Source: Callorhinchus milii
Lineage: Eukaryota
DNA: 64,000 nucleotides
Direction of reading: 5' to 3'
NCBI RefSeq assembly: GCF_018977255.1
Contig: NW_024704772.1
Coordinates: forward strand, 558,001 to 622,000
Shown piece by piece: positions 36,270-49,145 of the stretch. A program made the translations under genes and the position numbers. Every line of letters starts with the position of its first letter. Within the stretch, counting starts at the first letter, position 1. Under the pieces are notes generated by a model. The model saw only the letters and a list, made by a program, of their open reading frames with translations. It ran no database searches and had not been told where the DNA came from.

Positions 36270-36657
36270 TTAGAAATATTCTGGTCTGAAGTGAAGGCCA
36301 ATATCGTCTGCCAGCCGTTTCAGCTCTTTGTACTCAGCTCGACTGAGATCCATCTTCTCTTTCTCATCATTCAGGCCAAGGATGAAGCTTTTCCCTTCGT
36401 CTACAACTCCGCGAATGTCGTCATCTATTCTCGGGTCACGGTCGGCCTCTTGGTTCTCTGCGTACAGGTAAGCCATCTGCGGGATGTTCTCAACAGCTAG
36501 GTCGTGCTCTTCGTCTCTTGGTAGTATATCCGGGTAATAATCTAGGTTGTTAGCTCTGCGGACCACCGACCGCAGGAGCGGTACTCTGTTCTCCTCCATG
36601 GAATCGATGCCAGTGATTATCTCGTCAGAGTACACACATGCAGAATCTAGGTCAAGG
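36270..36657 (-). CDS. DKKL1: DKK3/DKKL1-like last exon (last Cys and acidic tail)
   Basis: ttcccacag|[27 protein letters not shown]...[23 protein letters not shown]. Confidence 0.88.
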
Positions 36658-39600
36658 CTGTGGGAAGAAAAGGAATTTGTGAACTTTAGTAGGTTTTGTT
36701 AACCCGCAAGGGCTTACAGGAGCAAGATCCGAATCAAACCCCAGTGAAGCCAATAAATAATAATAATCCTTGCGTTTCATATAGCGCCTTATCACGTGTT
36801 CAAGACGTCTCAAAGCGTTTCATGAAATATACTGTGAAGTGGATTCACTGTATATTGTGTGGGCGAATAAAGGGCAACAAAGCAAAAAAAATTACTGTTG
36901 GCTTGAGCTGTTGTCAGTATTTATAAGACTGATAGACACAGATGGACAACTGGTCACTAAAATCAGATAGTCTGTCCATATCTGACTGGACCTCAGATCC
37001 CTACACTTTACATACTCTTAAAATGTCTGAAGTCAGGTTGCGTTTTAGCAAAGTATTTATGAATTTTTTTATTGCATGAAATCGTATTTTAATAAATGCG
37101 CTTTCTTCCAATTTACGGTTCTATTTTATCATTTAAATGTGGAATAATCTCTGGGTTTATTAAGAATTTTTCACAATTCTTAATTTTAAAACAAAAAGAA
37201 GTGCTTACAGACTAAGACCAGGTAGAATTTCATCCCTCAGATTCTCTCTCTCCTTACCGTGTGGAGACGCAGGTCAGTTCACCAGCACAGGGACAGAAGT
37301 CCTGAGGGTCATTGAACTTCAGTTCCCAGCCGATCAAACCCAATAGACCACTATCGGGTTGATAACATCTCTCCCCTTCTGTTGCCATTGGAGAGCACAC
37401 AGCAAATGGCAAAGCTTTAAAAATCAACGTAAACACATCAGGGACACATTACTGTACAGTGCATGAATTTCTATATATAACCTAGTGTTATGAAAGAAAC
37501 CATATTGACTTCTTATATTCCTTCAGCCATTACGCCCCGACCTCTGGAATTCCACCTTGCCTCCTCTTTGCCCGTCTTCAAATCGGCAAAAAGAAAGGGG
37601 AAAAATGAACAAGTTTTCACTTACAGATGTGATTGGCACAGCACAGGCCTGAATTGCAGTCACGCTGTCTGGTGCAAATCGTTCCCCTCTCGCCTCTGGA
37701 AAAGCCATCTGTGCACTTTCCCCACACACACAGATATCCTGGGCAGCACTCAGCTTCCCGGGAACACGCCTAACAGAGGGTGGGAACACGAAATAAAGGC
37801 AACAAATATTTAACGGATCACCTCTCTATGTGAGATGCCTCACTTGCCACACAATTAGTGTTCAGGCTGCCAATTGTAGCTAGCATTAGGTAGAAGGCTC
37901 TTTCTCTTGTCAAGTCACTGAAGCCAGGATGAGGCCTGCTATACATTTTGTGAAGGTGCCCCTGAGGCCTGGCCATCAGTTTCTTAAATGGTTTTGGTTG
38001 ATTGATTGAAAAGAATATGGCATTGCCTCACATGGGAAACAAAGCCATTTGTATCTCATACTTACAGCATTGATTAGTTTGCATTGCTGGCATTTTAATG
38101 TAGTCAGGGATGAACAGTATTCATTCTCTCCACAATCCGTGTCCATCAAGCATACCTACAAGAGGATAGCACTACTATTATAAGGCATCACAACTCTATG
38201 GATACCCACAAACACACCATACATACATTTACACACAACAAACTACAGAATATGCACCATACACACACAAATTATCCACACCATACACATCATACACACA
38301 CCTTACACATCACGCTCGCACACACATGGCATACATATGGGAAAACAGACAAAGCGTGTGTCAGTGTCTTCAGGGTAGTTAGGAATATAACTGATAGGGA
38401 GACTTTGGGGGAGAAGAGGTTTACTGTATATGCACAAAAATCCCAATTTCAGAATTATCCGTGTATATGGCATTGCAATGGTATCTGTTGCTGTGTAACA
38501 GGGAGAAAAAGCTGAAAGAAAAACATAAAAATGTTGGAAATGTACAACATGTTGATCATCATATGAAAGGTAAAGAGAGTTTAATTGGTCATTAAGCTAG
38601 AGAAACCCAGATACTATATTTAGGATTGAGAAAGTCAAGTGGGATCTGACCCAAACTTTAGAAAGAGATCAAAACTTCATAGCCTCTACCTACATTCACA
38701 GTACAGCTAAGTGGTGAATGAGGTCCTCATTAGCTAAATAGTTGTGATATCAGTGCAATAGTTGTGATTAAAAACAGCATACTCTGATGTCTGACGTCTC
38801 TGCTATGTGCTCCCAGGGCCATGAAGTAAATAACTAATATTTTTTTACCTGAGGGATGATGGGCAGGACATCAGGAGAAACTTCCTTCTCTTTCAAAGTC
38901 CTTACCTGGGACTTGAACCTACAGCCTTCGACTCAGAAGCAAGAGTGCTACCAACTGAGGCAGGCTACCACCTTGCTTAGAAACGTAAACGGGTCTCTAT
39001 CAGAGTATTCATTCATTTCATATTAGTCTCATTCTAAAACGTGCTTTGAGACATCTTTTACATGAGACGCTGTGTAAATGTAAGTTACTGTTGCCTGCAG
39101 GAGAGGAGGGAAGAAGATCGACGGAACAAATAAAAAAGAAGCAATGCAACAAACGCATAGAGGTGTCAAGGGAAAAACAGAAGAGCATCGATGGGCCCAA
39201 CACTTCCTTTTACTAGTGTTTCTGGTGAGTGTTGTGTTTTATCGCAATAATCCGTCTTATTCTGGTTCCGAATTTACTGTGTTAGTTTACTATTCGGCAC
39301 TGAGTCCTTTCAAACAATGTAAATGTTTCTAGCTATAACTAGTTGTTTTATTTCAGAACCTTCTCACGCTCAGTGTAACAGGCAATTCAGTGTGGCTCAG
39401 TTGGCTAAAATAGATCCAGAGTATGGTGGTCAATTATGAGGGAAGGATAGAATTTTCCTCTTTTAACAAGCTGACCCGAAGGTTTATCAGATGTCCATAT
39501 AGCCATACCTTTGGACTTTACTGTACTCGGAGCTTTTTTGCTAAATATTATTGCTGCATCTTAATGTTCTCTATCTTGTCTCATTTGCTGCTTTATCTTG

Positions 39601-48000: not shown

Positions 48001-49145
48001 CCAAAGCAGAAAAAAGTCACTTGTGGGTAACAAGTAAACGACCCCAAAGGGGGTGGGGTTGGGTGGGGGAATTGGTTTGGAAGCTCTCAGCCTTTTCATG
48101 AGCAGCTCCAGTGTGTGTGGCTTCAGCGAAACACAGAAGGTCACTTCTGTAGACCTGACTCCCTCCCTTCCTTCCTTCCCTCACAACCTGCAAAACACAA
48201 CGAGGATGGGGTTAAGTCGACGGCAACAAAAGCGACGTTTCAAATAAAAACAGCAAATAATGTAATACTTGTGCTCCCCCCCCCCTCAAAAAAAAATCAC
48301 CCAATAGCACTCGAAGGCCTTGCACAACCATACTCCGAAAATTCAGACGATGACTGACTGTAATAGCTTAACAAACAGACTTCCACAGTTTAATAATAAT
48401 AATCCTTGCATTTGATGTAGCGCCTTATCGCGTCTTCGAGACGTCTCAAAGCGCTTCACAACACATACTGCGAAGTGAATTGACTGTCTATTTTGGGGGC
48501 AGAGAGTTTTACTCGGTTTCAAATGGTTACAGAAAGCTCTTGGCTATATATATATACATTACACATTATATATATATATATAAAGCTCTGCATTTACTCT
48601 TTTACCAACACATAAAATGTCCACCCATTTCATTATAAGGCCGACTTTGCCCTTATCCTTAATAGCTCACTAACCACTGTGAGATTTACAGGGACAGAGA
48701 GCTGGAGACATTGTATGGCCACATGAGGCCAAGAAGACATTATTATTTTGCCTTTTTACCACCACTGTTTATCAAAGCCCCATTTGCCAAAACCATCAAA
48801 AACCATCAAAAACCATCAAAACCATCAAAAACCATCAAAAACAAGCCCAGTTGGGACGTCTGAACGCTCTCTGTGTGTTCACAGCAGAGGTTCTGCGTTA
48901 ACACTGGTATTTTATCATAAGAGTTTGATTTAAAAAAAACACAGTGGCTCACCTCTTTCTGCCCAGATGTTCATCCTTCTCCTCGTCCACCAGTTTTCAT
49001 CTCCCCCCCAACCCCACCCCCACCACCACCCTTTGCTTTTGCTTAATTAAACCTCTCTCTCTCTCTCTCTCTGACTTACCAAAGCGGCGGGAGCTGCTGT
49101 AACGTAGAGAGAAAGCGAGAGAAACAGAGCCAAACACAGCATCAT
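36270..49145 (-). CDS. DKKL1: Dickkopf-family secreted protein: DKKL1-like Soggy domain plus DKK3-type Cys-rich domains (about 364 aa)
   Basis: Exons 49145-49080, 46507-46373, 45378-45295, (41109-41050, 40949-40890), 37769-37625, 37414-37258 and 36657-36270 give a continuous frame. The symbol comes from Soggy motifs plus synteny; a pipeline would probably call it DKK3-like. Confidence 0.88.
37258..37414 (-). CDS. DKKL1: DKK3/DKKL1-like Cys-2 (colipase-fold) exon
   Basis: [51 protein letters not shown]|gtaagg; aligns to DKK3 PVCTPLPVEGELC...WELE...CPCASGLLC. Confidence 0.95.
37625..37769 (-). CDS. DKKL1: DKK3/DKKL1-like Cys-1/Cys-2 exon
   Basis: ctgttag|[48 protein letters not shown]|gtaagt. 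Confidence 0.95.
40101..41741. repeat. Diverged local direct duplication (about 40101-40373 and 41524-41741)
   Basis: Identical taaaaagtgttgacatgccacatcttttgcgagagtaaa start, then collinear similarity to ...acaagacaatYtattaacaaactg. Confidence 0.8.
40890..41109 (-). CDS. DKKL1: DKK3/DKKL1-like first half of Cys-1, apparently split (41109-41050 and 40949-40890)
   Basis: [20 protein letters not shown]|gtgcgt ...100 nt... ag|[20 protein letters not shown]|gtaagg; acceptors are weak. Confidence 0.55.
45295..45378 (-). CDS. DKKL1: DKK3/DKKL1-like Soggy-domain exon
   Basis: ctcttttag|[28 protein letters not shown]|gtttgt. Confidence 0.88.
45666..45860 (-). mobile_element. L2-type LINE 3' fragment
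   Basis: [18 protein letters not shown] on the - strand plus tail. Confidence 0.8.
46373..46507 (-). CDS. DKKL1: DKK3/DKKL1-like Soggy-domain exon (GC donor)
   Basis: tttgcag|[45 protein letters not shown]|gcaagt. Confidence 0.9.
48788..48842. repeat. (AAAAACCATC)n tandem repeat
   Basis: About five 9-10 bp units. Confidence 0.9.
49080..49145 (-). CDS. DKKL1: DKK3/DKKL1-like signal-peptide exon
   Basis: [22 protein letters not shown]|gtaagt, phase 0. Confidence 0.75.

Follow-up and report, generated by a model that had tools for sequence, protein, structure and literature searches.

A DKKL1-locus gene of the chimaera Callorhinchus milii encodes both Dickkopf cysteine-rich domains and probably also a Soggy-only form

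We analysed a stretch of 64,000 nucleotides from the chimaera Callorhinchus milii (contig NW_024704772.1, positions 558,001 to 622,000 of the forward strand), hereafter called the window, in which positions are counted from its first letter. Between a KASH5-type gene and a TEAD gene, the window carries a seven-exon gene on the minus strand (49175-36270) encoding a Soggy domain, two domains rich in cysteine (CRD1, CRD2) and an acidic tail. An earlier note on this DNA had recognised the Soggy segment, the DKK3-type Cys exons and the acidic tail, and all of them indeed belong to one spliced gene on the minus strand. By descent, this gene is very probably DKKL1. Furthermore, we consider it quite likely that the DKKL1-locus gene, derived together with DKK3 from a genome duplication, makes a long and a short product, and that the short form was fixed separately in elasmobranchs and in mammals.

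The 364-amino-acid translation of the seven-exon model is identical to RefSeq XP_042200910.1 ('dickkopf-related protein 3 isoform X1', Callorhinchus milii) and differs in one residue from UniRef V9KRV4; both databases label the protein DKK3 or DKK3-like. All six introns are canonical, five being GT-AG and one GC-AG. The earlier note had ended the gene at 49145, which is a second in-frame ATG and the counterpart of the start in 104-residue shark proteins; the model starts at 49175, and two last exons inside intron 3 had been overlooked. Exon 1 encodes a hydrophobic N-terminus that, judged by eye, is a putative signal peptide. In Pfam searches, Dickkopf_N matched residues 107-155 (E 7e-13) and the prokineticin/DKK C-subdomain residues 164-235; the Soggy domain, for which Pfam has no model, is also present. 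The 20 cysteines within residues 107-243 make up two ten-cysteine domains with a short linker, and no N-glycosylation sequon was found anywhere in the 364 residues. AlphaFold2, run on a six-sequence alignment, gave a mean predicted local distance difference test score of 54, with 70-90 in the CRDs, three strands at 47-58 in the Soggy domain and a disordered tail. Only the CRDs of this model, the one part for which it is reliable, found matches in Foldseek, namely DKK1/2/4 as well as folds of the prokineticin and colipase type.

Spliced contigs from four sequencing runs of three studies, which carry no tissue labels and were taken as RNA by guess and not by record, showed every joint from exon 2 through exon 7, five of the six in the model. 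In run X9, a single contig (number 21) spans the gene from the first Soggy exon to the second CRD2 exon. No joint between exons 1 and 2 was among those displayed, and the reads end at a repeat beside exon 1. An extra exon between exons 1 and 2 (near 47300, 48150) was considered and dropped, because the database protein joins exon 1 straight to exon 2. At the 5′ end, contigs of two runs extend exon 2 into intron 1 (46373-46830), in agreement with record P0013, while the start of isoform X2 in RefSeq lies 6 kb further upstream toward TEAD. Both 5′ variants lack the hydrophobic leader and recall the non-secreted DKK3b isoform mentioned in PMC10778571.

The gene order around the window was compared with that of other vertebrates. 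The window lies on a contig that we call C31, and C17 is another contig of the same genome; positions in kilobases or megabases refer to such contigs. On C31 the order is PTH2/TIP39 (550 kb, plus strand), a galanin-family exon (558 kb, minus strand), the KASH5-type gene (587-590 kb, minus strand), the window gene (594-607 kb, minus strand) and TEAD (620-637 kb, plus strand). The PTH2 match is the only one in the genome, while a PIH1 family match 2 Mb away on C31 was not used as a close anchor. The earlier note had described the gene as divergent from TEAD and in tandem with KASH5. This holds at family level, at which both neighbours were identified, since there is a TEA-domain exon on the plus strand and EF-hand_9 and KASH_CCD exons lie on the minus strand. 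Mouse Soggy is reportedly 'antipodal' to TEAD-2, as the title of Kaneko and DePamphilis 2000 has it. In human 19q13.33 the interval reads TEAD2, DKKL1, CCDC155 and PTH2 (PMC13431349), and in turtle and alligator, too, DKKL1 is placed upstream of CCDC155 (PMC10967326).

A second gene with Soggy domain and CRDs, located at C17:15.469-15.482 Mb, is the DKK3 of this genome. It has seven exons with the same phases as the window gene, carries the DKK3 N-terminal helix and is followed 6 kb downstream by USP47, with another TEAD about 170 kb upstream; the DKK3-USP47 linkage is conserved from fish to human (PMC10967326). The earlier note had proposed a separate DKK3 in such surroundings, and would have abandoned its reading had the Soggy domain grouped with DKK3 and the genome contained no other DKK3; this second gene is that DKK3. 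The C17 model (C17:15475929-15477538) lacks three conserved CRD1 cysteines, two of them a pair where exon 4 ends and the third a member of the Cys-Cys doublet, which is either true divergence or a sequence error. In total, C17 and C31 share four paralog pairs (TEAD, the Soggy+CRD gene, the EF-hand_9/KASH_CCD gene and the galanin family), from which we infer a whole-genome duplication. GAL and GALP have been described as genome-duplication products (PMC5207463). The window gene and DKK3 likely arose together in this vertebrate genome duplication. The DKK3/DKKL1 duplication predates the split between cartilaginous and bony fishes, which bears out the earlier view of the DKKL1-locus gene as an ancient DKK3 paralog.

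The main tree was built from 204 columns of the Soggy domain and CRDs of 20 proteins, with the tail excluded. A branch with 99/99 support separated the window protein and 11 long DKKL1-type proteins (lungfish, amphibians, alligator and lizards) from the C17 protein and seven DKK3 proteins. A sister relationship of the window and C17 proteins, a hypothesis chosen for testing after the first tree had been seen, was rejected by the approximately unbiased (AU) test in two trees (p 0.006 and 0.019). With four DKK1/2/4-type outgroups, compared over the CRDs and with the long-branched Rhinoderma omitted, support for the window protein with DKKL1 was 93/97. A tunicate-rooted and a Soggy-only tree contained 21 and 25 rows of about 130 proteins, from which fragments, near-copies and merged models were omitted. 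In the former, rooted with a tunicate-type outgroup (Styela and one similar protein), nine DKK3 rows formed a 98/97 clade without the window protein. The Styela record contains Soggy and both CRDs, which makes this architecture ancestral. On these alignments, the best trees place the window protein outside the DKK3 clade; its own clade is not resolved by them.

The tail gave an additional comparison. A profile of ten bony-vertebrate long forms scored the tail of the window protein at 47.3 bits over 106 positions and that of the coelacanth protein at 87 bits, whereas all seven DKK3 tails stayed at or below 6.8 bits. Five more DKK3 tails and two invertebrate tails scored at most 2.8 bits.

Several results weigh against an assignment to DKKL1. 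Under the DKK1/2/4 outgroups a grouping of the window protein with DKK3 was not rejected (p 0.136), and with the tunicate-type outgroups the base of the tree was not settled (p 0.188 and 0.345). The window protein is a long branch in the trees. In the 57-column tree of Soggy domains, the kind of tree that the earlier note had proposed, the window and shark proteins fell inside the DKKL1 group, but on a long branch and with little support (p 0.41 vs 0.11; three of the 21 inner branches starred), and the domain is too short to decide alone. The diagnostic columns divide into three of DKKL1 type, two of DKK3 type and three others, and a DKKL1 Soggy profile scored the C17 DKK3 at 78 bits compared to 62 for the window protein. 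In addition, the neighbouring TEAD is assigned to its family and not specifically to TEAD2, and searches with two Pfam domains gave no more than three TEAD genes (C31, C17 and C19) instead of four.

Next to the long form, the window gene can be spliced to either of two short last exons in intron 3, named exon A and exon B. Exon A was found by sequence first. When the AG acceptors in the gene were scored for the C-terminal peptide of the shark proteins, one clear site in intron 3 (acceptor 40330) was obtained in the right phase, and among 16167 AG sites on both strands of 124 kb it ranked at the top (28 vs 22 for the next). An AATAAA is present at 40150, downstream of the exon. Afterwards, reads were mapped to the exon 3-exon A joint. 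Run X4 contains a GT-AG joint from exon 3 to acceptor 40330 at a depth of 44.7 and a 79-base contig over exon A at a depth of 74, compared to about 9 for intron contigs and 191.7 for the long joint. For exon B, the joint at 42315 appears in a single run, X5, at a depth of 52.2 and with a short side of 30 letters, and no shark counterpart of exon B was found. Translated from the second ATG, the Soggy-only product via exon A has 103 residues, against 104 in sharks. We hold with good confidence that the window gene is a two-form gene, with a long and a short product. From the hydrophobic leader, the long form and the short forms are both likely secreted. Intron 3 also contains a degenerate direct duplicate (40080-40330 vs 41500-41760) in three pieces of 78-93%, in which exon A itself is not kept.

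When the Soggy exon was used as a query, only short shark and ray proteins were matched besides the chimaera protein. The CRDs are absent from all 19 elasmobranch-type records (12 named species and one further record; 87-241 amino acids). Their C-termini match the exon A peptide in 15 of the 19 records, 14 sharing nine residues and one being a variant, while the remaining four end otherwise. Searches for a long shark form (80-2000 amino acids, 200-637 amino acids, and with a profile) returned only the chimaera protein as long. The Soggy core is identical in 62-64 of 65 residues between the chimaera and all 19 elasmobranch records, which points to a strong lineage-specific constraint on the part common to both forms. 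This chondrichthyan core has a net charge of -16 and no sequon, whereas nine other proteins range from -6 to +2 in charge and carry 2-3 sequons. In the ESM Atlas, the shark short form retrieved DKKL1-named clusters at 0.84-0.87, below the 0.9 bar, which we regard as a lead only. Judging from the protein records, elasmobranchs probably lost the CRDs independently of mammals.

In other vertebrates, where we compared protein records without their genomic context, both types of product were encountered. With the Sceloporus protein as query, 38 proteins were retrieved. They include long forms with 20-25 cysteines and without the DKK3 helix from numerous lizards as well as Alligator sinensis, axolotl, Protopterus, Ascaphus and Rhinoderma; the model of the turtle Platysternon has CRD1 and a remnant of the long-type tail. 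The coelacanth protein XP_014344262.1 is also of the long DKKL1 type and has been named both DKKL1 and DKK3 over time, while many lizard records with Dickkopf_N are already named 'dickkopf-like protein 1' by NCBI. Tracing the Cys exons, as the earlier note had advised, thus revealed the two Cys domains, or a portion of them, in protein records of coelacanth, amphibians and reptiles. Its description of the gene as the state 'before Cys-domain loss', meaning one early loss, is not supported in that form: coelacanth, lungfish, amphibians, alligator, a turtle and lizards all have Cys-bearing products, and the window gene itself already makes a Cys-less form. Among ray-finned fish no DKKL1-type protein was recognised in similarity and profile searches, the gar, paddlefish and eel matches grouping with DKK3. 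Likewise, no such protein was recognised in birds with the Sceloporus query and the profiles.

Records of the short form come from lizards, a python, tuatara, sea turtles, crocodile and a caecilian. In Rhineura, isoforms X2 and X4 share 58 identical residues and then diverge at the end of the Soggy domain into CRD1 or a basic tail, and in merged models of Podarcis lilfordi and Pogona the short tail sits between the Soggy and CRD exons. Mammalian DKKL1 records (armadillo, Tasmanian devil and four of platypus) contain no cysteine. A short-tail profile built from 11 non-mammals scored armadillo, devil and platypus DKKL1 at 45, 38 and 28 bits, indicating that the mammalian protein is the tetrapod short form. 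As far as the protein sequences show, lizards make the same choice between long and short at the same point with another exon, which is homologous to the mammalian tail. The lizard short tail gave sub-threshold structure rows only in the ESM Atlas, which is a lead only. The short-tail profile found nothing in the long window protein, the shark forms or intron 3; by this comparison, the chondrichthyan short exon is of separate origin from the tetrapod one or diverged beyond recognition. In some lizards, the DKKL1 locus is annotated as two genes, one with Soggy and short tail and one with CRDs only (Phrynosoma P0026/P0049, Paroedura P0042/P0043; P0047), and reptile CRD-only 'DKK3-like' records may be the rear half of DKKL1.

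Compared to known systems, the window gene resembles mammalian DKKL1 in its Soggy domain and in its locus between TEAD and KASH5/CCDC155 with PTH2 beyond, and its short form shares the plan of leader, Soggy and non-Cys end. In contrast to mammalian DKKL1, the long form carries an acidic tail after its two CRDs, and the short exon has eight codons where tetrapods have a basic tail of about 110 residues. DKKL1/Soggy has been defined by its missing CRDs and was excluded from a study of Dickkopf evolution (PMC10606412). With its 20 cysteines the long product is not classed as a Soggy-type protein, and the short forms alone fit the CRD-less definition. To DKK3 (REIC), the long form is similar in its order of Soggy, CRD1, short linker, CRD2 and acidic tail and in exon count and phases. 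It has the CRD2 insertion type described for DKK3 (PMC10606412), and its linker and insertion compare with the short CRD linker and CRD2 insertion of that protein (PMC10778571, PMC10606412). However, the window protein has no N-terminal acidic helix, has another tail, is not linked to USP47 and stands outside the DKK3 clade, and its gene has a Soggy-only alternative form. The long DKKL1-type records (coelacanth, lungfish, axolotl, frogs, alligator and lizards) agree with it in architecture and C-terminal motif, although those of tetrapods obtain the short isoform via another, longer last exon. Elasmobranch proteins named 'DKKL1' or 'DKK3-like' have the same splice point, a matching C-terminal peptide and a near-identical Soggy core, but no long form on record. 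DKK1, DKK2 and DKK4 share the CRD1 and CRD2 folds but are without Soggy, have a long linker and carry His-Phe-Trp in CRD2 where the window protein has His-Ile-Ser. Four DKK1/2/4-type genes with both CRDs lie elsewhere in the genome (C1:31.89 Mb, C28:1.75 Mb, C7:18.71 Mb and C13:3.19 Mb), one above the three of mammals, and the extra gene may match the turtle 'DKK3L' of PMC10967326.

The choice is made at the donor of exon 3. In the spliced contigs the donor at 45295 is joined to exon 4, giving the long form, or instead to 40330 or 42315, each seen in one run, which leads to a stop within 8-10 codons. The Phe-Trp pair of DKK1 CRD2 contacts LRP6. The long form, with its short CRD linker and DKK3-type CRD2 insertion and without this pair, would not block Wnt via LRP6 in the manner of DKK1, and would act DKK3-like. 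For DKK3, binding of LRP6 and Kremen is disputed and CKAP4 has been reported as receptor (PMC10778571). A testis role of DKKL1 has been described in mouse, human and turtle (PMC3442974, PMC8872165, PMC10967326), and by analogy with the mammalian and turtle protein the short form may have a reproductive role. A lineage in which the upstream last exon is retained while the exons behind it disappear would end with a Soggy-only gene, likely separately in elasmobranchs and mammals. In this way the Cys domains would be lost without a domain deletion inside a protein.

Other explanations differ in how much of this history they accept. The gene could be a DKKL1 orthologue whose long form is merely unannotated in sharks and rays, which would keep the Cys exons and leave the mammalian loss as the only real one. 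The elasmobranch evidence comes entirely from protein records and not from genomes, and reading CRD absence from such records, in sharks as in mammals, is limited accordingly. Annotation can also conceal a long form: turtle DKKL1 was published as Soggy-only (PMC10967326), yet the Platysternon model has CRD1 and the long-tail remnant. We nevertheless consider this unlikely, as the 19 of 19 records without CRDs stand against it, together with searches that could have caught a long form via the near-identical Soggy exon and gave only the chimaera protein. Rather improbable is that the orthologue simply has Cys domains and that its intronic last exons are splicing noise, with no two-form ancestor. 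This would fit the two different short exons, each joint found in one of the four presumed RNA runs with 27-30 letters on the short side (27 for exon A, below the threshold of 31), and the lack of detectable homology between chondrichthyan and tetrapod short exons. Yet the shark C-terminus had led to exon A, the best of all AG sites scored, before any reads were consulted, its joint depth of 44.7 in X4 compares with about 9 for intron contigs and 191.7 for the long joint, and a polyadenylation signal follows.

The gene could also be an additional paralog of the DKK3 family that predates the DKKL1 lineage of bony vertebrates, or stands apart from it, and lies beside a TEAD by coincidence. Such hidden paralogy would agree with the unsettled base of the rooted trees and with a TEAD not placed by a tree, but the four-gene order with its single PTH2 anchor matches human 19q13.33 and the tail agrees with that of long DKKL1 forms along 106 positions of the profile, and we regard it as very improbable. 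Hardly credible is the origin implied by the RefSeq name, a DKK3 duplicate specific to the chimaera or to cartilaginous fishes. The DKK3 and DKK3-like database names and the seven-exon layout and phases shared with the C17 DKK3 speak for it; against it, the AU tests rejected a clade of the window and C17 proteins under the model used, the DKK3 N-terminal helix is missing, and tail and locus are of DKKL1 type.

A common ancestry of Dkk3 and Dkkl1 has been stated as a belief (PMC8872165), and a review calls the function of the Soggy domain unknown (PMC10778571). The only reptile DKKL1 study that we found reports Soggy only (PMC10967326), although its tree may include non-mammalian long forms. 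The earlier remark that DKKL1 is no mammalian novelty is true but not new, reptile DKKL1 being already in print. Within the accessible literature outside subscription journals and supplements, we found no paper with a CRD-bearing non-mammalian DKKL1, a date for the duplication or two last exons. Parts of the story are visible in public annotations; the two-form account was not found in the literature so covered.

In its widest form, towards which we lean only somewhat, most jawed vertebrates would have in DKKL1 a full Dickkopf gene, the fifth, a twin of DKK3 from the genome duplication, with a switch between last exons in one and the same intron. Its short form would have been fixed twice, in mammals and in elasmobranchs, with unrelated exons, and the acidic, unglycosylated and near-invariant chondrichthyan Soggy, a secreted product of about 85 residues, would be a minimal reagent for studying what this domain does. 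If true, many non-mammalian 'DKK3-like' records would be misnamed DKKL1, non-mammals would have an unstudied fifth full Dickkopf ligand, and the mammalian acrosomal protein would be the surviving splice form of a full Dickkopf gene. Domain loss via alternative last exons would then be traceable twice, in two lineages, and the near-invariant Soggy-only protein would offer a test of the function of the Soggy domain.

Table 1. Positions in the window of the exons of the DKKL1-locus gene and of its neighbours.
Feature	Position	Strand	Evidence
Exon 1, coding, hydrophobic N-terminus	49080..49175	-	Model identical to RefSeq; shark N-termini
Exon 2, first Soggy part, GC-AG donor	46373..46507	-	Model, spliced contigs
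Exon 3, second Soggy part; donor is the long/short branch point	45295..45378	-	Model, spliced contigs
Exon 4, first half of CRD1 (Dickkopf_N)	38066..38155	-	Pfam, model, spliced contigs
Exon 5, CRD1 end, short linker, CRD2 start	37625..37769	-	Pfam, model, spliced contigs
Exon 6, remaining CRD2 (colipase/prokineticin fold) with DKK3-type insertion	37258..37414	-	Pfam, model, contigs, Foldseek
Exon 7, acidic tail bearing the long-form DKKL1 C-terminal motif, then stop	36270..36657	-	Model, tail profile
Alternative last exon A, 8 codons + stop, Soggy-only form	40304..40330	-	Shark/ray C-terminus match; joint to exon 3 (GT-AG) in X4
Alternative last exon B, 10 codons + stop, second Soggy-only form	42283..42315	-	Joint to exon 3, seen in X5 alone
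Alternative first coding exon of RefSeq isoform X2, without hydrophobic leader, between gene and TEAD	55382..55414	-	RefSeq isoform
KASH5-type neighbour, EF-hand_9 + KASH_CCD exons; gene extends further	29378..31540	-	Exons 31376-31540, 30039-30194, 29378-29509
TEAD neighbour, TEA-domain exon, transcribed away from the DKKL1-locus gene	62409..62540	+	Continues to C31:636.6 kb

Two further observations concern the neighbourhood. The galanin-family exon lies at 357-395 of the window on the minus strand; its 13 conserved N-terminal residues are immediately preceded by a dibasic site, and a second galanin-family exon was found at C17:3.87 Mb. Located between PTH2 and the KASH5-type gene, the window exon may represent the paralog on the GALP side, still in a galanin-like state. 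A GC-rich stretch (34060-34560) a short way upstream of the KASH5-type gene contains two near-identical units with CCAAT boxes and is likely the promoter of that gene.

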